Source: an uncultured Alphaproteobacteria bacterium (lineage in GTDB: Bacteria > Pseudomonadota > Alphaproteobacteria > Methylaequorales > Methylaequoraceae). From it: a stretch of DNA of 64,000 nucleotides. The stretch's first letter is position 1; every line of letters begins with the position of its first letter. The DNA lies in the NCBI GenBank assembly GCA_902613995.1, contig CACMJG010000003.1, positions 70,054-134,053 of the forward strand, written 5' to 3'. Position numbers and translations under genes: made by a program. Positions 14,585 to 34,751 of this stretch are shown here, piece after piece. Below the pieces are notes generated by a model. That model ran no database searches. It was not told the origin of the DNA and saw only the letters and a list, made by a program, of their open reading frames with translations.

Positions 14585-15031
14585 TTATAATGATCCTTCT
14601 AAAATATATTTCAAAATTCTTACAACTTGATGTTGATCTTCCGCCACTGCAGAGGCTGAAGCATCAACTTCTTTTAGTGCATGTTGATGTTCATCATTAT
14701 GAATAACAATGATAGACTTATTTAAAGCTGAAGCATAACCTGCATCAAACGCAGCATTCCATTGTTTATATTTTTCTCCGAATTTTACAACAACAACATC
14801 ACAATCTTTTATTGACTTTTTTGTTTTAATAGAATTAATTTTGGCACCTTTATTATCTTTCCAAAAGTTTTTTTCTTCAACACCTAAAATTTCTACACCA
14901 CAATTGTCTGAAGCATCGTGATTAGTAACAGGTGAAGAAAACTTTATTTTTAAATCTTCTTTTTGACAAAGATCAATTATTTCTTCACGCCAATTAGTAT
15001 GGATTTCTCCTGATAGATAAACACTTAACAT
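14585..15031 (-). CDS. YtoQ family protein (nucleoside 2-deoxyribosyltransferase-like fold)
   Basis: The VYLSGEIHTNWREEI opening and overall 148-aa pattern fit the YtoQ family. Confidence 0.8.
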   Translation of the reverse strand: MLSVYLSGEIHTNWREEIIDLCQKEDLKIKFSSPVTNHDASDNCGVEILGVEEKNFWKDNKGAKINSIKTKKSIKDCDVVVVKFGEKYKQWNAAFDAGYASALNKSIIVIHNDEHQHALKEVDASASAVAEDQHQVVRILKYILEGSL

Positions 15032-15138
15032 CTAATAAGCCTTTCAAATTAATTCTGCAGCTTTTAAATTTTAATTTTTAATAGAAAACTAATTTAATTC
15101 AATCAATTTTTTCTTTATAAAGTTAATATAAATCTTAT

Positions 15139-15939
15139 ATGAATATAATGAAGTCAATTAGAAATTTAAACTGTCTCTGTCTATATTTCTTATTTATACC
15201 AATTTTTTTCTTTTTATCATTTTCATGTTTGCTTGCAAATGATGATAAAAATCAATACAAATTAAATGATATTCCGGCACAGTGTAAAAATTCATTAGGA
15301 TGGTATGACGATCACCCAGGTTATGTAGGTGAGTTTAATAGAATTCTCGAATATTGTAAACAATACGCTAAAGACGTGAGTCCAGAAGGCTTCGAAGTTA
15401 ATCCAATACTTTCAGATTTTGGAAGTATGAGTGGAGTAAATACGCGACCAAGGGACACTATTCATCAGGGCATAGATATTATTGGTTTTAAAAATCAACC
15501 TATAATTGCAATTGCTGATGGAAAGGTTTTAGAAACAATAGTCGAAGATTGTTGGGGTGCTACGATAGTTATCGATCACGGGAAAGCTCTAGATGGAAAA
15601 AATCTTATCGCAATTTATGGTCACGTTGGTGAATTTAAAGTTAGTGAAAATGATATTGTAAAACGAGGAGATGTTATTGCAAAATTACCAATAAAAGTTA
15701 AATATCGTTGCATGGCAAGAGTTCGTCATTTACATCTCCAAATTGGGCAAGAATATTGCGAAAAAAAAGATAATTGGGGATGTAAATATTTTATTAAGGA
15801 TTTTTATAGATCACTTGACCCCCATAAGTATTGGGCCAACGGACCTAATAACATTTCATGTTTCGAAAAAGATAAACCATTTAAAGAAGGGGTTATTACA
15901 TATCCTTTCGAATGCGAAAAAAGGGTTGAGCTTCAATAA
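15139..15939 (+). CDS. secreted M23 family metallopeptidase
   Basis: N-terminal hydrophobic signal, then HQGIDI, IDHG and HLHLQI (HxxxD / HxH) M23 motifs. Confidence 0.85.
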   Translation: MNIMKSIRNLNCLCLYFLFIPIFFFLSFSCLLANDDKNQYKLNDIPAQCKNSLGWYDDHPGYVGEFNRILEYCKQYAKDVSPEGFEVNPILSDFGSMSGVNTRPRDTIHQGIDIIGFKNQPIIAIADGKVLETIVEDCWGATIVIDHGKALDGKNLIAIYGHVGEFKVSENDIVKRGDVIAKLPIKVKYRCMARVRHLHLQIGQEYCEKKDNWGCKYFIKDFYRSLDPHKYWANGPNNISCFEKDKPFKEGVITYPFECEKRVELQ

Positions 15940-16162
15940 CTAATAATAAAATACTCATTAAAATTGAATCTAGATTAAAAAAATAATTTAGAAATTTACA
16001 TAAATATCAATAAAAAAATTCTTGTTCTTCATCACATCATCAAAATTATTAATGAAATAATTGTTCCAATTATTATGAATCTAAATAACATTTAAATAGT
16101 TTCAGTAAAATTAATATTAATTAAATCGGTACAAATAAGAATTTTCTTCATTGTTAAAAATT

Positions 16163-16405
16163 TTAACGTTTTTTAAATTTTCTTCTTAAATTTAAATTTT
16201 TATTTTTATTTCTTTTATTAATTTCATTTTTGTCTTCACTACTGAACACACATATTCTATTTCTTACACCTCTTGTTCTTTCAAAAGAATTTTTCGGTGA
16301 TTTACATTCATAATATACTCCATCAATATTTATTCTTTTTTTTCCGTAAGATTCATCATTAAAAAAAATGATTATAAAAATTATAAAAACATAATACGGC
16401 ATCAT
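16163..16405 (-). CDS. hypothetical 80-aa protein coupled to glmS-tail relic
   Basis: Its ATG overlaps the TGA of the relic glmS tail (ATGA). Hydrophobic N-terminus and a very basic C-terminus. Confidence 0.35.
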   Translation of the reverse strand: MMPYYVFIIFIIIFFNDESYGKKRINIDGVYYECKSPKNSFERTRGVRNRICVFSSEDKNEINKRNKNKNLNLRRKFKKR

Positions 16406-16455
16406 TCAACTGTAATCTTTTTAGTCAAACTTCTAGGTTGATCATCTATTTTCAT
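16402..16455 (-). pseudogene. relic copy of glmS 3-prime coding end (copy 3)
   Basis: Translates as MKIDDQPRSLTKKITVE*, compared with the glmS C-terminus DQPRNLAKSVTVE*. Shares the TTCTAGGTTGATCA core. Confidence 0.75.
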
Positions 16456-16529
16456 TACTCACTTCTTATCAATATTTGTAATAAAATATACACAAAAGTT
16501 TTATAATATAATTATTAATAAAGGTTTAA

Positions 16530-16652
16530 ATGAATAAAATTATTGTTGTACTATTCATGGTTTTAGTTACATCATGTGAAGAAGAACAGGTAAAGGATTG
16601 GACTGATGATCCTAAATATGATCCTAAACCAAACTCTTTATTAAGGTTCTAA
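16530..16652 (+). CDS. candidate 40-aa lipoprotein
   Basis: MNKIIVVLFMVLVTSCEEEQ...: a signal peptide plus a lipobox-like LVTSC. Sub-threshold ORF. Confidence 0.3.
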   Translation: MNKIIVVLFMVLVTSCEEEQVKDWTDDPKYDPKPNSLLRF

Positions 16653-16778
16653 AAAAAATAAAAAAAAAACATCATGGTGGATAAATCCCAAGAGGATTAT
16701 TTAACTTCAAAGAAATTATCACTTATGTGTCATAAAATTTAAACAATTTTTTTTATTAAATATAAATCCTTTCCTTAT

Positions 16779-16808
16779 AAATCCTCTGAATGAATATTCA
16801 GAGGATTT
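16779..16808. repeat. perfect 13-bp inverted repeat (hairpin, 4-nt loop)
   Basis: AAATCCTCTGAAT gaat ATTCAGAGGATTT, 14 nt downstream of the stop of the 88-aa gene. No adjoining U-tract. Confidence 0.8.
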
Positions 16809-16821
16809 CCTAAATTACCTT

Positions 16822-17076
16822 TCATTTTTTATAAACTAAACAAGTACCCTCGTTACCTGTCAAATGTAACTTATACATTTTGTCATCATTATAAAAATAC
16901 AAATGAAGGTCACCTGATTTCCTATTGATTGTTGAGTTTACTATTTTGGTATCATTATCTTCTAATTCTTTCATACACTTTTCATAATCAATAAGTTTTG
17001 TTATTGATTTTTTATCTTTTGACTTCACTTCAAAAGAGACAAACAAACAAATCAATATCAATAATAGTTTTTTCAT
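16822..17076 (-). CDS. small secreted protein
   Basis: Signal peptide MKKLLLILICLFVSFEVKS. Start placed at MKK; the track start at 17088 adds 4 codons. The signal-coding DNA is near-identical to 17874-17929. Confidence 0.5.
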   Translation of the reverse strand: MKKLLLILICLFVSFEVKSKDKKSITKLIDYEKCMKELEDNDTKIVNSTINRKSGDLHLYFYNDDKMYKLHLTGNEGTCLVYKK

Positions 17077-17078
17077 AC

Positions 17079-17500
17079 AAAAATCCATAATGATCCAAAT
17101 ATAAGAATATCTATTAAAATCACTTTTGTAAAACTACTCATAAACCAACTCACTACTTATTATTTCACCTAACTTACTTTTATTCTTTTCTAAATGTCTA
17201 TTATGTTTCTTTATTAACTCAAACACTAAACTTGGAGAAAACCTTTTTCCTCTATAACTCAGTATATTAATCTGATTAAAATATTGACTTATCATTTTAT
17301 AAGTATGACCACATTCTCTAAAAAAAATAATCTTATCAATCAACATTTTTTGATAAGGAGAGTATGGATAAGAATTCAGTCTTATGTTTGATATCTTATA
17401 GTGAATTTTAAGGATGATGTTTGTATAATCTCTAAAACTATACATACAAAACGAAATCATTCCACGGTAATCTTTTTTGTCAAATTTCTAGGTTGATCAT
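17079..17500. repeat. ~420-bp direct repeat, copy A (pairs with 19217-19640)
   Basis: By-eye alignment gives roughly 85-90% identity. It covers the 108-aa gene plus the glmS-tail copy. Confidence 0.85.
17134..17460 (-). CDS. 108-aa cassette protein with resolvase-like helix-turn-helix region (paralog of 19276-19602)
   Basis: ATGA-coupled to relic glmS tail. GHTYKMISQYFNQINILSYRGKRFSPSLVFELIKK resembles the HTH/recombinase-domain segment of serine recombinases, but there is no catalytic domain. Confidence 0.55.
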   Translation of the reverse strand: MISFCMYSFRDYTNIILKIHYKISNIRLNSYPYSPYQKMLIDKIIFFRECGHTYKMISQYFNQINILSYRGKRFSPSLVFELIKKHNRHLEKNKSKLGEIISSELVYE

Positions 17501-17510
17501 CTATTTTCAT
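17457..17510 (-). pseudogene. relic copy of glmS 3-prime coding end (copy 2)
   Basis: Translates as MKIDDQPRNLTKKITVE*. 33 of the last 42 nt are identical to the functional glmS tail. Confidence 0.8.
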
Positions 17511-17563
17511 AACTCACCCCTCATCAATATCAGTAATAGTTTTTTCATTATTTGAAATTATTC

Positions 17564-17929
17564 CTAATCTTTTTGTTTCCTATTAATATCAAATTTCAAA
17601 CAACCAATATAAGATAAACCTTCTTTTTTTGAATCAGATTGTTTTTTTCTTGTATTCACCATTATGAGATAAGTCTTCCCCTTATAAACAAACACTGTAT
17701 CAATTCTATTTCCAAGACTACCTACCTTATTTGACCAAGAACTAATTGTTTTACCTTTTTCAAAATACTTCAAACACTCTTGTGTTTGGATATTTTCAGT
17801 AGGATAATACTTTGATAGACGTTTACGTTCTTCCTCTAACTCAAAAATGTCATTTAAATTTGGTCGTGACTGTGACTTCACTTCAAAAGACACAAACAAA
17901 CAAATCAATATCAGTAATAGTTTTTTCAT
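17564..17929 (-). CDS. secreted 121-aa protein
   Basis: Signal peptide MKKLLLILICLFVSFEVKS. 4-nt overlap with the upstream 107-aa gene. Confidence 0.55.
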   Translation of the reverse strand: MKKLLLILICLFVSFEVKSQSRPNLNDIFELEEERKRLSKYYPTENIQTQECLKYFEKGKTISSWSNKVGSLGNRIDTVFVYKGKTYLIMVNTRKKQSDSKKEGLSYIGCLKFDINRKQKD

Positions 17930-18249
17930 TTTTGTAACTTTCTTAACTCAGTCCAAACATTTAAATACGAATTATGTCTCTCTGATTGATCAGGAGAAAT
18001 TGAGTTTTTAAAATTATCGTAATTTATGTCTTCAACTATATTCTTCAGTTTACTAGATACATCAGTCTTTTTTATGAAAGAACGATACTTATAATCTGAA
18101 TTTTCCATTTCAAAAACATCTGAGTCTGGAAAAACTTTTTCTATATCACCTTTGATTCTTGAACGAACTAATAACTCGTCTTTATTATTTCTATTTTCAA
18201 CTATTGATAAAAAAGAATTATTTAGAAATACCCACATTATACTTTTCAA
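17926..18249 (-). CDS. 107-aa hypothetical protein (operon partner of DUF3427-HNH)
   Basis: ORF with 4-nt overlaps on both sides. No motif I can name. Confidence 0.55.
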   Translation of the reverse strand: MKSIMWVFLNNSFLSIVENRNNKDELLVRSRIKGDIEKVFPDSDVFEMENSDYKYRSFIKKTDVSSKLKNIVEDINYDNFKNSISPDQSERHNSYLNVWTELRKLQK

Positions 18250-19205
18250 TTATTTTTAATTTCATTTTTTTCATTAAATTTTTTTCTATGTCTTGTTAAG
18301 TATTTAATCATTCCTTTTGAAACATTTATTTTTATGTCTTTTCTTAGACCTAATTTTATCACATTTTTTTGGTTTAATTTTTTTGAAATCAAAAGTTCAC
18401 CATTATCTTTAAAAGAAATTAAATATCTATCAAAAAGAGAGTCAAAAATCGGTGATAATAATATTCCATTTTCAGGATCCAATCTCTCCTTATCTGTTGA
18501 TTCTGACCAACGGACAATATGAGATGAAATTAAAATGGATTTAATATCTATTCCTGTAATTGGACACATTCCGTTCCATTTATCTATTATTTGTTGTCTA
18601 TAATAACCTTGACCAACTCTTGATGTAACCATTCCTTTTCTTTCAGTCTTATCAGGTTTTTTATATTCTTTTTTTCTTTTATCTGAAATAATTCCTTTCA
18701 TTGATATTTTTGAACTGGTTTTCATTCCTATTTTTGAGGGGTTCCATAGGTAAATATCAATTAGGTCATCGTTTTCAGTAAAGTCATCATAATCAACACT
18801 TTGAAAAACTATGTGAACAGGATTTGATGTTTTTTCTTCATGAGAATGATAAATCAACTTCCCACAATAAATAAAAGGTAGAGTTACATTTTTAGTTTTT
18901 GGATTAACTCTTACGAATAAATGTGGTGTAACTTTTCCACTCACAATTTCTTGTATTTTAGGACTATCGATATTTTGTGTTGTTTGAGAGTCCCAATGAA
19001 AAAAATCTCCTTCAAAAAAATCATTAAAATGAAATTTTTTTTCTTTATCTTTTTTTTCAAGGTCAACAAAGAAAAGTGATGAACTAGAATTTTTACAATT
19101 AAAAATTCCTTCCCGAACAAAAGAAAGATTTGGTTGATCTAACAAACTTGATAGATCCTTTTTGGAATATTTACTTCCTAAATCTAAAACTTTCTCAGGT
19201 TCCAT
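18246..19205 (-). CDS. DUF3427-HNH nuclease (putative modification-dependent / type IV restriction endonuclease)
   Basis: The N-terminal ~170 aa follow the DUF3427 pattern (YSKKDLSSLL...LFFVDLEK...FNDFF..FFHWDSQ...HLFVR...FIYCGKL...PVHIVF). The C-terminus carries an HNH_2-type motif (VGQGYYRQ...CPITG....L.SSHIVRWS....LDPENGILLSP.FD.LFD). Confidence 0.8.
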   Translation of the reverse strand: MEPEKVLDLGSKYSKKDLSSLLDQPNLSFVREGIFNCKNSSSSLFFVDLEKKDKEKKFHFNDFFEGDFFHWDSQTTQNIDSPKIQEIVSGKVTPHLFVRVNPKTKNVTLPFIYCGKLIYHSHEEKTSNPVHIVFQSVDYDDFTENDDLIDIYLWNPSKIGMKTSSKISMKGIISDKRKKEYKKPDKTERKGMVTSRVGQGYYRQQIIDKWNGMCPITGIDIKSILISSHIVRWSESTDKERLDPENGILLSPIFDSLFDRYLISFKDNGELLISKKLNQKNVIKLGLRKDIKINVSKGMIKYLTRHRKKFNEKNEIKNN

Positions 19206-19216
19206 TTTCTAATCTC

Positions 19217-19640
19217 AAAAATAAATCCACAATGTTCCAAATATAAGAATATCGATTAAAATAACTTTTGTAAAACTACTCATAAACCAACTCACTCCTT
19301 ATTATTTCACCTAACTTACTTTTATTCTTCTCTAAATGTCTATTATATTTCTTTATTAACTCAAACACTAAACTTGGAGAAAAATTTTTTCCTCTATAAC
19401 TCAGTATATTAATTTGATTAAAATATTGACTTATCATTTTATAAGTATGACCACATTTTCTTAAGAAGATAATCTTATCGATTAACTTTTTTTGGTATTC
19501 AGAGTATGGATACGGGTTAAGTTTTATGTTTGATATCCTATAGTGAATTTTGAGAGTAAGTTTTGTGATGTTTTTATTTTTATACAGACAATTGAAACTC
19601 ATTCCACAGTTACAGATTTAGCTAAATTTCTAGGTTGATC
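19217..19640. repeat. ~420-bp direct repeat, copy B (pairs with 17079-17500)
   Basis: Covers the 108-aa gene and the functional glmS 3-prime end. Confidence 0.85.
19276..19602 (-). CDS. 108-aa cassette protein with resolvase-like helix-turn-helix region
   Basis: Its ATG overlaps the glmS TGA (GAATGAGT). About three-quarters identical to the 17134-17460 product by eye. Confidence 0.6.
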   Translation of the reverse strand: MSFNCLYKNKNITKLTLKIHYRISNIKLNPYPYSEYQKKLIDKIIFLRKCGHTYKMISQYFNQINILSYRGKNFSPSLVFELIKKYNRHLEKNKSKLGEIIRSELVYE

Positions 19641-21419
19641 AACATCGGTACCTTTCAAGACTCCTACAAAATAAGATAGTAGTTGAACTGGTAAAGTAAA
19701 AATTATTGGTTGTACAAACTCATGAAGGTTCTTTAAAACTAATCTTTTGAGATTTTTGTCATCGATCTCTTTGTCGCCGTTAGTATCAGTAACTAATATA
19801 ACTTTACCTCCGCGTGCTAAAATTTCTTGCATATTAGAAATATTTTTCTCAAATAAACTATCTTTAGGTGCTAATACAATTACAGGAACTTTATCATCAA
19901 CCAGTGCAATTGGACCATGTTTCATTTCGCCAGAAGCGTATCCCTCAGCATGTATATAAGAAATTTCTTTTAATTTTAATGCACCTTCCAGTGCAATTGG
20001 AAACAAATGACCTCTTCCCAAGAATAAAACACTTTTTGCATTAACTATTTGCTTACTTAATTTCTTGACTTGCCCTACTAAATTAAAAACAGATGACATA
20101 TTTGAAGGGATTTCCAAAAGTTTTTCAGTTAATTTTTGCTCATTGGAACTATTAATTGTTTTTCTTTCTCTTCCAGCTATTAAACATAAGCACGCTAAAA
20201 CACTAAGTTGCGCAGTAAACGCTTTAGTTGATGCGACGCCAATTTCTGGGCCCGCTTCTATAGTTATGAAATTGTGCGATTCTCTTGCAATACTACTCTC
20301 TGAATTATTGACAATACTAAATATTTTACTGTCGTTTTTCTTGGCAAATCTTAAGGCAGCTAACGTATCTGCTGTTTCACCAGATTGTGAAATAAATATT
20401 GAAAGTGTATTCTTCGATTTAATGTACGTTTTGTATCTAAATTCGGATGCTAGATAAGAATTTGCATTCAAATTTAAATATTTTTCAAACCAATAAGTTG
20501 CGGTTTGACACGCAAAATATGATGTTCCACATGCAATAAAATCTATTTTTGAAATTTGTTTCCAATTAACTTTTAAATCAAGAATATTTATTTTTTTTTT
20601 TATAGGATCAAGAAATCTTGATAAAGAGTCTCCAATAATGAGTGGTTGCTCAAAAATTTCTTTTTGCATGTAATGATCAAAATTTCCTTTATCAAGATTT
20701 GATCCAGTGAACGAAGATAATGTTATATTTCTCTTCACTTTTTTAAAATCTTTATTGTAAATATCAAATTTGTCTTTCTCAATAATAACGCTATCTCCTT
20801 CATCCATAAATATAATCTTTTGAGTAAAAGGGGCTAGAGCTAATGAATCAGAACCTAAATAAGTGGTTTTATCTGACAAACCAAGTGCTAATGGACTTCC
20901 TCTCCTTGCGCCTGCTAATAAATTAAAGTTTTTAAAAATTATTGCTATAGCAAATGCACCCTCTAAATATTGTAAAGTATTTTTTATTGCATTTCTTGGA
21001 GTATTTACTCTTAACTCATAACTTAGTAAATGAGCTATAACTTCACTATCAGTTTGAGATTTAAAAATAAATCCTTTATTTTTTAACATTTTCTTGAGTT
21101 GTGAGTAATTTTCTATTATTCCATTATGAACAATCGAAACATTTTCAGAAACATGCGGATGAGCATTAATTGTGGATGGTACACCATGGGTAGCCCATCT
21201 TGTATGACCAATTCCAATATTTCCAAATAGCTCATTTGTTTTTATTTTTTTATTTAGATTCTCTAACTTACCTTTAGCTCTTACAGTTATGATAGAGTTA
21301 CTATTATCCAGAACTGAGATACCAGATGAATCATACCCCCGATATTCAAGCTTCGAGAGTCCCGTTAAAATTGGATTAATAACTGGATTATTAGAGAAAA
21401 TACCAAAGATTCCACACAT
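19599..21419 (-). CDS. glmS: glutamine--fructose-6-phosphate aminotransferase
   Basis: MCGIFG Ntn-glutaminase start, two SIS domains and the canonical C-terminus DQPRNLAKSVTVE. Confidence 0.97.
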   Translation of the reverse strand: MCGIFGIFSNNPVINPILTGLSKLEYRGYDSSGISVLDNSNSIITVRAKGKLENLNKKIKTNELFGNIGIGHTRWATHGVPSTINAHPHVSENVSIVHNGIIENYSQLKKMLKNKGFIFKSQTDSEVIAHLLSYELRVNTPRNAIKNTLQYLEGAFAIAIIFKNFNLLAGARRGSPLALGLSDKTTYLGSDSLALAPFTQKIIFMDEGDSVIIEKDKFDIYNKDFKKVKRNITLSSFTGSNLDKGNFDHYMQKEIFEQPLIIGDSLSRFLDPIKKKINILDLKVNWKQISKIDFIACGTSYFACQTATYWFEKYLNLNANSYLASEFRYKTYIKSKNTLSIFISQSGETADTLAALRFAKKNDSKIFSIVNNSESSIARESHNFITIEAGPEIGVASTKAFTAQLSVLACLCLIAGRERKTINSSNEQKLTEKLLEIPSNMSSVFNLVGQVKKLSKQIVNAKSVLFLGRGHLFPIALEGALKLKEISYIHAEGYASGEMKHGPIALVDDKVPVIVLAPKDSLFEKNISNMQEILARGGKVILVTDTNGDKEIDDKNLKRLVLKNLHEFVQPIIFTLPVQLLSYFVGVLKGTDVDQPRNLAKSVTVE

Positions 21420-22723
21420 TATTTTTTCTTATTTTTTTTGATTAATTCAGACTTTCGATAAACAACAGTTCCTATCGGAATATCCTTATTAACAACGGTT
21501 CCAGCCCCAACTACAGATCCTTTTTTTATTTTTAATGGGGCAACTAGAGAGGTATTAGATCCAATAAAACAGTTTTTACCAATGATGGTTTTATTCTTTT
21601 TAATACCATCATAGTTGCAAGTAATTGCACCAGCACCAATATTACTATCACTATTAATAATTGAGTCTCCAATGTAGGAAAGGTGAGCAATTTTTACATT
21701 TTTATCAACTTTTGATTTCTTTATTTCAACAAAATTTCCAATTTTGGAGTTTTCTTTAATTTCAACGCCGTCTCTAATTCTCGCATAGGGACCAATGACA
21801 GAGTCATTGGAAACAATTACATTGTCAAGATAACTAAAACTTCTTAAAGTCACCCGATCTTTGATTTTAACTTCCAAACCAAAATAGACATTTGGTTGGA
21901 TAGTAACATCTTTACCAATTTGAGTATCGTAACTAAAAAAAATTGTTTCGGGTGCAACCATTTGAACTCCTTTAGATAAATAGTAATTTCTTTTTATCTT
22001 CTGAAATTCAAAATTTACTCTCGCCAGATCCTTCATACAATTGACACCTAATGTCTCGGTAAAATCACAGGAAAAGTGATCGATTGAAAGATTTTTTTTA
22101 TTAAAGATTTCAACCAGATCTGTTAAAAAATACTCTTTTTTTTTATTTTTATTTTTAATTAATTTTAAATTTTCAATAAGTCTTTTTGTTTTAAAAATCA
22201 TTATTCCGGAATTACATATATTGGAGTGTTTTTCGTTTGTAATTTCACTGTCTTCGACTATTCCAGTTAATTTTTTATTTTCAAATTTTAATTTTCCATA
22301 AGAGTTGGTCTCATTATCTGGGATCATTGAAATAACACATAAATCTAAATTATCTTTATGAAATTTTTTCAAAGATTTTTTTAACGTCTTTTGTGAAATT
22401 AATGGTGTGTCTCCACATAAAACTAAAGTGGTATTAGAATTCTTTGTACTTTCATCTAATGAAGAATTTACAGCATCTGCTGTACCATTTTGTTTGATCT
22501 GTGTTGAAAAGGTTATTTTTTTATATCTACTTTTTATTTCACTTTTATATTGTGAAAATGAACTTGAAATTACAACCTTTACCGTAGCATCTTTCAAAGA
22601 ATTTATTGAATCTAGAATATGAAAAAGCATCGGATAATTTCCAACATCATGTAAAACTTTAGGTTTTGCAGATAGCATTCTTGAACCTTTTCCTGCTGCT
22701 AAAACAATTATAGATAAAGACAT
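21419..22723 (-). CDS. glmU: bifunctional GlcNAc-1-P uridyltransferase / GlcN-1-P acetyltransferase
   Basis: LAAGKGSRM nucleotidyltransferase motif and C-terminal hexapeptide-repeat beta-helix. TAATG junction with glmS. Confidence 0.95.
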   Translation of the reverse strand: MSLSIIVLAAGKGSRMLSAKPKVLHDVGNYPMLFHILDSINSLKDATVKVVISSSFSQYKSEIKSRYKKITFSTQIKQNGTADAVNSSLDESTKNSNTTLVLCGDTPLISQKTLKKSLKKFHKDNLDLCVISMIPDNETNSYGKLKFENKKLTGIVEDSEITNEKHSNICNSGIMIFKTKRLIENLKLIKNKNKKKEYFLTDLVEIFNKKNLSIDHFSCDFTETLGVNCMKDLARVNFEFQKIKRNYYLSKGVQMVAPETIFFSYDTQIGKDVTIQPNVYFGLEVKIKDRVTLRSFSYLDNVIVSNDSVIGPYARIRDGVEIKENSKIGNFVEIKKSKVDKNVKIAHLSYIGDSIINSDSNIGAGAITCNYDGIKKNKTIIGKNCFIGSNTSLVAPLKIKKGSVVGAGTVVNKDIPIGTVVYRKSELIKKNKKK

Positions 22724-27634: not shown

Positions 27635-27710
27635 TGGTGCCCAGGGGAGGAATTGAACCACCGACACAGCGATTTTCAGTCGCTTGCTCTACCAACTGAG
27701 CTACCTGGGC
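27635..27710 (-). tRNA. tRNA-Phe (GAA)
   Basis: Canonical 76-nt cloverleaf GCCCAGGTAGCTCAGTTGGTAGAGC...CTGAAAA...GGTTCAATTCC...CTGGGCACCA. Confidence 0.95.
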
Positions 27711-34677: not shown

Positions 34678-34751
34678 GCCCTCTTAGTTTAATAGTAAAA
34701 CAGGGTCTTGGTAAGACTCAGCCACTGGAGCGTAACCAGTAGAGGGCACCA
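34678..34751 (+). tRNA. tRNA-Thr(GGU)-like cloverleaf with non-canonical D and T loops (atypical tRNA or tRNA-mimic leader)
   Basis: 7-bp acceptor stem (GCCCTCT/AGAGGGC), 4-bp D stem (GTTT/AAAC), 5-bp anticodon stem, TTGGTAA loop, 4-nt variable region, 5-bp T stem (ACTGG/CCAGT), A73 and CCA. The D loop is AATAGTA (no GG) and the T loop is AGCGTAA (no TTC). Confidence 0.5.

Follow-up and report, generated by a model that had tools for sequence, protein, structure and literature searches.

How does the end of a conserved housekeeping gene come to be repeated behind the gene itself, with small genes of other kinds between the copies? The question is raised by glmS in a stretch of 64,000 nucleotides (the window) from an uncultured Alphaproteobacteria bacterium of the Methylaequoraceae (GenBank assembly GCA_902613995.1, contig CACMJG010000003.1, positions 70,054 to 134,053). 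The window is AT-rich, with about 28% GC. The gene lies on the minus strand (19599-21419), downstream of glmU, and its terminal codons recur twice beyond its stop codon. An earlier reading of the letters alone, referred to here as the original prediction, proposed that small cassettes had been inserted serially and site-specifically into the glmS end, and that any recombinase would act in trans. The analysis presented here makes it fairly likely that the locus is a hypervariable mini-island at the 3′ end of glmS, arising by site-specific recombination with a large serine recombinase (LSR) acting in trans and with a small gene, R108, carried on one arm of the recombination site.

The three tails are all on the minus strand and were found where the original prediction had placed them. 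Tail 1 is the native glmS end (19599-19641, encoding DQPRNLAKSVTVE and a stop), tail 2 lies at 17457-17510 (MKIDDQPRNLTKKITVE, stop) and tail 3 at 16402-16455 (MKIDDQPRSLTKKITVE, stop). A repeat search of the window recovered them as a 43-nt family of three copies with spacings of 1055 and 2142 bp, reproducing the reported stop-to-stop distances, and with identities of 91% and 77%. The statistical check that had been called for gave three exact occurrences of the 14-nt core TTCTAGGTTGATCA in 64 kb against 0.04 expected from shuffles, and three matches to the 43-nt degenerate tail pattern against 0.00 expected. At each tail the next open reading frame (ORF) starts on the ATGA that holds the tail's stop codon, as had also been described: 19276-19602 and 17134-17460 (108 aa each, the two copies of R108) and 16163-16405 (80 aa, o80). 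Tails 2 and 3 have 100 nt in common at 83% identity, including the non-glmS sequence noted previously. The direct repeat of about 420 bp said to contain copies 1 and 2 is present but two-tiered, with about 300 nt at 92% identity (17073-17372 versus 19215-19514) and a neighbouring stretch of about 125 nt that is more diverged. The two cassettes that follow tails 1 and 2 can be aligned over just 520 of their 2140 and 1053 nt, and not along their whole length, as a simple local duplication would have it.

Relatives were obtained from a glmS-based scan with one genome per species, which gave 11 loci (L001-L011) with GlmS identities of 78-97%. They are single-cell genomes and metagenome-assembled genomes (MAGs); further assemblies, some of them polished long-read contigs of 1.1-1.6 Mb, came from searches for identical proteins. 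Gene order on both flanks is conserved in every relative, with glmU-glmS on one side and o80, an M23 peptidase gene and YtoQ on the other, and the stretch between glmS and o80 varies in content genome by genome. The 14 arrays mapped junction by junction have between zero and three cassettes each, 19 in total, ranging from 237 to 4554 bp. Two sites are empty (L006 and L032, the latter a polished long-read assembly), and in both of them the start of o80 overlaps the glmS stop codon with no cassette between. Three loci with identical GlmS (L032, L033 and L034) have islands of 1.2, 3.1 and 3.7 kb, respectively. The comparison that the original prediction had proposed thus bears out its site-specific, additive array behind glmS. 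A local tandem duplication or an assembly artefact, without any mobility, might be suspected because 3.3 kb contain two copies of R108 and three tails, all pointing the same way. We rejected both and regard them as exceedingly unlikely: a simple duplication is ruled out because cassettes 1 and 2 have only 520 nt in common, and an invariant arrangement or an artefact because the islands differ between relatives, including those with identical GlmS, and some sites are empty. Each junction type also recurs across independent single-cell genomes, MAGs and polished long-read assemblies.

The point of exchange was mapped by linkage: all junctions were aligned and the bases around a dinucleotide, AC, were compared with the sequence of each neighbour. 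On the glmS strand AC precedes the end of the stop codon by 10 nt, and at the window junctions it sits within ACNGTNGARTRR. The base to its right tracks the right neighbour, being A with o80 (11 of the 12 arrays having that junction), T with R108 of types a and c (R108a, R108c) and C with type b (R108b). Reading further to the right of AC, AGTTGAATGA or AGTAGAATGA is found with o80, both empty sites included, TGTGGAATGAGTTTCA with type a, CGTGGAATGATTTCG with type b and TGTGGA(A/G)TGAGTTCG with type c. The bases to the left track the left neighbour in the same way: GTA, GTT or GTG with glmS, GATT with type-B tails and GGATG with type-C tails. Because the flanking bases on each side follow their own neighbour, exchange is confined to AC, a non-palindromic 2-bp central dinucleotide common to all sites. 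The core TTCTAGGTTGATCA, which the original prediction had noted in all three tails, is not the crossover point. That the locus is a site-specific cassette array exchanging at AC we hold to be very likely.

Linkage also settles what becomes of the glmS end. The native 30 nt to the left of AC remain with glmS in every genome, and the same type-B tail terminates the same 1055-bp cassette in four genomes. The downstream tails are therefore not older glmS ends pushed aside by later insertions, as had been supposed; those of the LTKKITVE type are diverged copies that travel with the cassette, and LTKKITVE is unlikely to be functional as a GlmS end. The idea that each insertion supplies a replacement tail holds for the last 10 nt of glmS (...VE-stop), which are the only ones exchanged, and fails for the rest. 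The original 10 nt end up beside o80 and the glmS ORF is left intact. Tn7-family elements recognise the C-terminal coding sequence of glmS, and like attTn7 the present site uses the conserved 3′ end of this gene as a safe harbour. A Tn7-like transposon at this classical attachment site was nevertheless rejected, and its probability is close to nil: insertion falls within the ORF, 10 nt short of the end of its stop codon and not some 25 bp beyond it, and there is no 5-bp target duplication. Tn7 employs a TnsABC+D transposase, inserts downstream of the stop codon and duplicates 5 bp, none of which is seen in the glmS array, and no transposase or Tns family was found among the Pfam-scanned cargo ORFs or the precomputed Pfam hits on the relatives' flanking genes.

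With the exchange point fixed, the array in the window reads as follows.

19599-21419, minus strand: glmS, 606 aa, the anchor gene (Pfam GATase_6/7 and SIS on homologues); its last 46 nt or so are the left (B-type) half-site for recombination.
19582-19646, minus strand: junction 1, attL-like, made of the glmS B half, AC at 19609-19610 and a P′ arm that is the first 27 nt of R108a.
17469-19610, minus strand: cassette 1, 2142 bp from AC to AC, with R108a, an HNH nuclease gene, o107, a lipoprotein gene, a truncated signal-peptide remnant and a type-B tail.
19276-19602, minus strand: R108a, 108 aa, a putative recombinase-domain-like helix-turn-helix protein, starting in the ATGA of the glmS stop.
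18246-19205, minus strand: cargo nuclease of restriction/defence type, 319 aa, DUF3427 and HNH_2 (Pfam; PADLOC HNH, E 1.3e-26).
17926-18249, minus strand: cargo o107, a protein without assigned function that recurs in cassettes of L002, L004, L008 and L025.
17564-17929, minus strand: cargo putative lipoprotein, 121 aa, with signal peptide MKKLLLILICLFVSFEV.
17440-17510, minus strand: junction 2, made of the mini-ORF MKIDDQPRNLTKKITVE-stop (a cassette-borne, glmS-like B-type half), AC at 17467-17468 and the R108b P′ arm.
16414-17468, minus strand: cassette 2, 1055 bp, with R108b, an 88-aa lipoprotein gene, o40 (opposite strand) and a type-B tail.
17134-17460, minus strand: R108b, the other R108 copy, likewise 108 aa, of type b in its first third.
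16822-17088, minus strand: cargo putative lipoprotein, 88 aa, 100% identical in L001 and L003.
16385-16455, minus strand: junction 3, attB-like, made of the mini-ORF MKIDDQPRSLTKKITVE-stop, AC at 16412-16413, the original right half AGTTGAATGA, which matches the empty sites of L006 and L032, and the o80 start.
16163-16405, minus strand: o80, a conserved 80-aa host gene, the right (B′) flank.
15139-15939, plus strand: M23 peptidase gene, the first conserved gene past the island and its right anchor (Pfam; synteny).

One cassette has spread between genomes. The 1055-bp cassette comes second in the window and first in L001, L003 and L007, each time with a different right neighbour. Over its last 906 nt the four copies are 98.2-98.7% identical, and the core genes of these genomes are 82-97% identical. 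Between the window and L007 the cassette is 98.7% identical, as against 85.7% for glmS, 84.4% for cysS and 82-91% for the flanking core genes. A cassette at 98 to 99% identity in backgrounds of 82-91% indicates recent horizontal movement. The cargo of cassette 1 is also found in L002, with a different end. Homologous recombination alone could in principle produce such a pattern, foreign DNA replacing the stretch between the flanks with R108 and the tails serving as crossover points and no site-specific enzyme being involved. The flanks are highly conserved, the R108 copies offer 300 nt at 92% identity, and replacement islands arising by homologous recombination have been described in aquatic bacteria (PMC4033161). 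In addition, the first 150 nt or so of R108 switch between types a and b (64-82% identical) in cassettes that are otherwise 98-100% identical, and this mosaic shows that homologous recombination within R108 reshuffles units as well. We consider it unlikely as the whole explanation. Dozens of junctions coincide at the same 2 bp, and the sequences that meet there are unrelated; the tails, 43 nt long and 77% identical to glmS, are too short and too diverged to drive exchange; and the same cassette occurs at position 1 or 2 with different neighbours. Two further observations, palindromes centred on AC and an LSR gene that adjoins it in relatives, also speak against homologous recombination alone.

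As the original prediction had noted, the array itself contains no integrase or transposase: Pfam on the cassette ORFs and on the syntenic loci of relatives revealed no recombinase within about 10 kb, and tblastn with the LSR found none in the array. The LSR came to light on L018, a 6480-bp TARA scaffold found through an R108 homologue at 65% identity. Serine integrases typically exchange at a 2-bp non-palindromic crossover in the centre of an imperfect palindrome of about 50 bp. L018 encodes a 546-aa LSR with Resolvase, Recombinase and Zn_ribbon domains (phrog_95 integrase, E 2e-80), followed by a site with the mini-ORF MKIVQTIETHSVTVE-stop, whose ATGA starts the R108 homologue. The sequence around this site forms an imperfect palindrome, TACAGACAATAGAAACTC-(18 nt)-GAGTTTCAATTGTCTGTA, with its axis between the A and the C of AC. 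The 31 nt from AC onward are identical in L018 and window junction 1, and the R108 genes are 76% identical. Given its terminal copies of about 420 nt, 96% identical and 6050 bp apart, L018 must be a circle, a concatemer or a tandem element.

The layout is repeated in a second element, L020, with an LSR 59% identical to that of L018; the arms of L020, ATACAGACAATACGAACTC and GAGTTCGTTTTGTCTGTAT, differ from those of L018 with compensating changes in step. Symmetry about AC is seen in cassette 1 of L005 (237 bp, 15 perfect pairs) and in cassette 1 of L010 (4.55 kb, restriction-modification), so that four loci, these two together with L018 and L020, have an imperfect attP-type inverted repeat, about 50 bp long, with the crossover in its middle. 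More distant LSR relatives on marine contigs (37-39% identity; L021, L027, L028-31) have ACNGTNGARTRR, the codons for T-V-E-stop, 20-70 nt past their own stop codon, where by our own estimate it would occur by chance at a rate of about 0.004 per locus; the whole LSR clade may thus be specific for the glmS end. The motif lies at 11769 in L021, at 11655 in L027 and at 2484 in L028, and occurs in L029-L031 too. In another TARA sample, L039 (1700-1804), an LSR, left arm and AC identical to those of L018 are joined to the end of the HNH nuclease gene of the window, of which the last 58 nt (18257-18314) are present at 96.6% identity; a deletion across the 9-nt microhomology GGAATGATT is the apparent origin of this join. 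We found no match in a viral contig collection for the LSR, R108 or two att-site DNA patterns.

It is likely, on these grounds, that a large serine recombinase acting in trans is responsible for the array. A tyrosine recombinase system elsewhere in the genome, either IntI acting on attC hairpins or an integrase of phage or tycheposon type, would fit the integron-like layout (an additive array of small, mostly promoterless cassettes with their own sites and no recombinase among them), and tRNA-anchored additive islands with repeated partial targets are known in other streamlined plankton. No tyrosine recombinase was seen adjoining any site, however; the sole recombinase found there is a serine integrase, in five independent lineages. 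The non-palindromic 2-bp centre of a palindrome of about 55 bp is a serine-integrase pattern, the accessory gene R108 is apparently related to a serine-integrase DNA-binding domain, and there is no Rfam match within 15000-22000 of the window. A tyrosine system is thus quite improbable. Homing by the HNH nuclease was considered separately and rejected, as most cassettes do not contain it.

Read toward the centre, the half-sites fall into two classes. The symmetric P and P′ arms carry TAYAxxACAA... 21-26 nt from AC. The glmS-like halves, namely native glmS and types B, C and D, have GATCAACC exactly 30 nt from AC with a middle that diverges freely, and a related motif that is 4 bp nearer the centre. 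In serine integrases the spacing of the zinc-ribbon motif differs between attB and attP half-sites, and the offset between the two classes recalls this difference, at least by analogy.

R108 is the other constant component. Its relatives always adjoin the site, and R108 itself is on the right arm. It is a real gene, judging from its substitutions: dN/dS is 0.1-0.3 at dS up to 1.5 in the C-terminal two thirds, and selection is more relaxed in the first third, where the coding sequence is at the same time site arm. A profile search gave a family of 121 representative clusters, nearly all of 55-180 aa. Eight of nine distant small members match positions ~6-51 of Pfam Recombinase (PF07508), four at or above the cut-off with 21.4 to 26.7 bits, and one also matches the family 'Recombinase-like HTH'. 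The AlphaFold model of R108 (pLDDT 75) has the order beta-HHH-beta. These matches argue that the R108 family is related to the helix-turn-helix in the Recombinase domain of serine integrases and that the gene is no neutral cargo; we infer that R108 would be a stand-alone copy of the integrase DNA-binding helix-turn-helix, acting on the arm that encodes it. The association of R108 with glmS crosses lineages. At 1-402 of L026, from a different organism (32% GC), a glmS end ...DKPRNLAKSVTVE-stop is followed by a 91-aa R108-like gene, and a second AC-type site lies at 2605, 2.5 kb downstream; a palindrome test on this contig did not exceed shuffles. A metagenome scan with the R108 alignment returned L025 and L026 only. 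In the restriction-modification cassette family of L010 and L025 a distant R108 relative of 111 aa (pairwise E 2e-6) is inverted and on the left arm (L025, 129-464, minus strand; L010, 16022-16348, minus strand), a mirror image of the common layout.

These observations suggest how the array might work. The LSR would come in trans from full-length elements of the same family and would catalyse cassette exchange. Each cassette in the window has R108 first, its first codons being the right arm of the site, and a glmS-like half-site last; R108 would probably bind the arm that encodes it and modulate recombination. The half-site at the end of the cassette, a mini-ORF that ends in ATGA, re-creates the stop/start overlap with the next gene. 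Each such mini-ORF has a purine-rich stretch ahead of its ATG and ends in the kind of overlap by which o80 adjoins glmS where no cassette is present. The mini-ORF may serve translational coupling.

Several points weigh against this reading or parts of it. Neither the window nor any glmS array examined by tblastn and by Pfam on cassette ORFs contains an LSR, and since the LSR is present only in L018, L020 and L039 the units of the window are at best non-autonomous relatives. The terminal copies of L018 are 96% identical and not exact, and so do not prove circularity. Contigs of five LSR homologues (P0054, P0072, P0100, P0091 and P0052) held no full-length element integrated at glmS (glmS|R108...LSR-P|o80); among the contigs searched L039 gave a variant junction only. 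The window junctions are B|P′, B-like|P′ and B-like|B′, with no P|B′ (attR): they are attL, attL-like and attB-like because the cassette-distal halves are glmS-like and not mirrors of P′. Indeed the type-B half and the P′ arm agree at 13-14 of 40 positions, which is background, and the window cassettes have no mirror symmetry. By the canonical serine-integrase reaction, cassettes of this kind would be neither excised nor inserted as circles. The direct likeness of R108 to the Recombinase domain is weak and below the Pfam cut-off (15.6 and 14.1 bits for the window copies against 21.1; E 0.02-0.06, 0.019 for R108a). Further, hhalign places residues 21-74 at the start of the LSR recombinase domain with an E of 0.046 and a probability of 1%, BLASTP gave no significant match between R108 and the LSR, a hidden Markov model search of PDB sequences with R108 gave nothing meaningful, and its model had no Foldseek match in the PDB at E below 1. 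The reshuffling within R108 by homologous recombination described above belongs here as well.

The glmS-like halves allow several possibilities. Non-canonical pairings of sites, perhaps licensed by R108, might explain them. The cassettes could descend from elements that captured a glmS end by aberrant excision and later lost their integrase. The glmS-like half of a cassette might also regenerate the landing pad by restoring an attB-like site distally. On the boldest reading the array would be a serine-recombinase counterpart of the integron, in which recombinase-less mini-cassettes (down to 237 bp), each with a target-like (B-type) half-site and a P′ arm, are inserted and rearranged in trans by a glmS-specific LSR through non-canonical pairings of attL-like with attB-like or attL-like sites, R108 licenses or restrains the reaction, and landing pad and translational coupling are regenerated with each insertion. 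This fuller picture is speculative, and we would sooner doubt it than expect it.

Among known systems the staphylococcal-type cassettes SCCmec and SCC at rlmH (orfX), moved by CcrAB or CcrC, are alike in using a serine integrase at the 3′ end of a housekeeping gene whose ORF is kept intact. SCC islands contain tandem elements split by short direct repeats of the target end, recombinase-less pseudo-SCC that use enzymes in trans, and restriction or defence cargo; the glmS array resembles them in its tandem units, its recombinase-less units, probably dependent on a trans enzyme, and its restriction/defence cargo. They differ in target (glmS here, rlmH in SCC), in host (here an AT-rich marine alphaproteobacterium), in unit size (0.24-4.6 kb here, 20-60 kb in SCC) and in the R108 on the site arm, the diverged glmS-like half-sites and the 546-aa LSR on an element of about 6 kb. 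The SCC mechanism is analogous, but the array is not a member, its target not being rlmH. Integrons and CALINs share additive small cassettes with their own sites, arrays that may be recombinase-free, and one fixed anchor site. Their IntI is a tyrosine recombinase that acts on folded single-stranded attC hairpins with a G|TT crossover, whereas the sites here are double-strand palindromes with a 2-bp AC centre, the LSR adjoins the site in relatives, and the anchor is the end of a protein gene and not attI. No IntI was found within about 10 kb of the array, and the junctions are at AC and not at attC G|TTRRRY.

In ecology the array recalls tycheposons and tRNA-anchored additive islands, described in Prochlorococcus and the Methylophilaceae (10.1101/2020.12.28.424599; PMC10872708), with which it has in common streamlined marine plankton as hosts, serial site-specific insertions, repeated partial target copies and cargo-only remnants. 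Those islands differ in their tRNA targets and in integrases that are mostly tyrosine recombinases. In the Methylophilaceae glmS is just the far boundary of a tRNA-Met island and not its attachment site (PMC10872708). The tRNAs of the window are only at 27635-27710 and 34678-34751, far from the array, and the repeats are glmS ends. The second of these, tRNA-Thr(GGT), was called by ARAGORN; an Rfam scan at the gathering threshold gave tRNA-Phe (27638-27710) alone. VEIMEs are small integrase-bearing marine elements found as concatemers, with Pelagibacter and other Alphaproteobacteria among their hosts; some have serine recombinases or HNH nucleases, the serine recombinases mainly in a cyanobacterial and Verrucomicrobia module, and glmS is absent from the main text of the paper describing them (PMC9618062). 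L018, with its 6.05-kb unit and non-identical terminal copies, could be a VEIME. The closest comparisons are SCC in mechanism, integrons and CALINs in layout, and tycheposons or tRNA islands and VEIMEs in ecology. The glmS array is not a member of the SCC, integron, tycheposon, VEIME or Tn7 families. The searchable literature contained no description of glmS-anchored serine-integrase cassettes, and glmS is unmentioned in a 2026 survey of 135 Pelagibacter genomes.

Across arrays the cargo includes the HNH restriction-type nuclease, a type II restriction-modification system (L010), a PDC-S26 candidate defence gene (L025), methyltransferases and small lipoproteins; it is mostly of defence or surface type. 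The lipoprotein signal peptide MKKLLLILICLFVSFEV is encoded by a stretch of 57 nt that is 96% identical at 17020-17076 and 17873-17929, in cargo ORFs that are otherwise unrelated, and a truncated third copy (MKKLLLILMRGEL-stop) lies at 17507-17548, just before tail 2. The same signal peptide heads differing cargo proteins in L001, L004 and L008, and the stretch may act as another anchor for recombination or as an export module common to these proteins. The gene o107 (103-107 aa) is found in cassettes of five genomes at 92-99% identity; where its downstream neighbour was checked it is a lipoprotein gene with an ATGA overlap (a remnant of one in L002), and the pair may form a two-gene module. 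Promoter-like sites in the region are at background (28 against 26.7 expected). The type-B tails (17456-17483 and 16401-16428, minus strand) contain a sigma-70-like TTGACA or TTGACT, a 16-nt spacer and (TG)GAATGAT, with 10 and 9 of 12 matches, the significance of which is doubtful.

Streamlined marine bacteria show huge strain-level variation in gene content, recombinase and mobile-element genes are rarely found beside their variable regions, and the mechanisms are debated. The glmS array offers a candidate mechanism for small-scale gene turnover in a streamlined, abundant, AT-rich ocean bacterium, and one whose pieces can be read from sequence: a 2-bp exchange point, a matching LSR element, occupied as well as empty alleles in cells whose GlmS is identical, and the passage of a cassette between lineages about 15% diverged. 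Defence genes appear to be traded in units of less than a kilobase to a few kilobases. If R108 is indeed a recombinase-domain protein on the site arm, it would be a new kind of serine-integrase accessory factor, and an LSR clade apparently specific for the near-universal T-V-E-stop end of glmS could provide a tool for safe-harbour integration.

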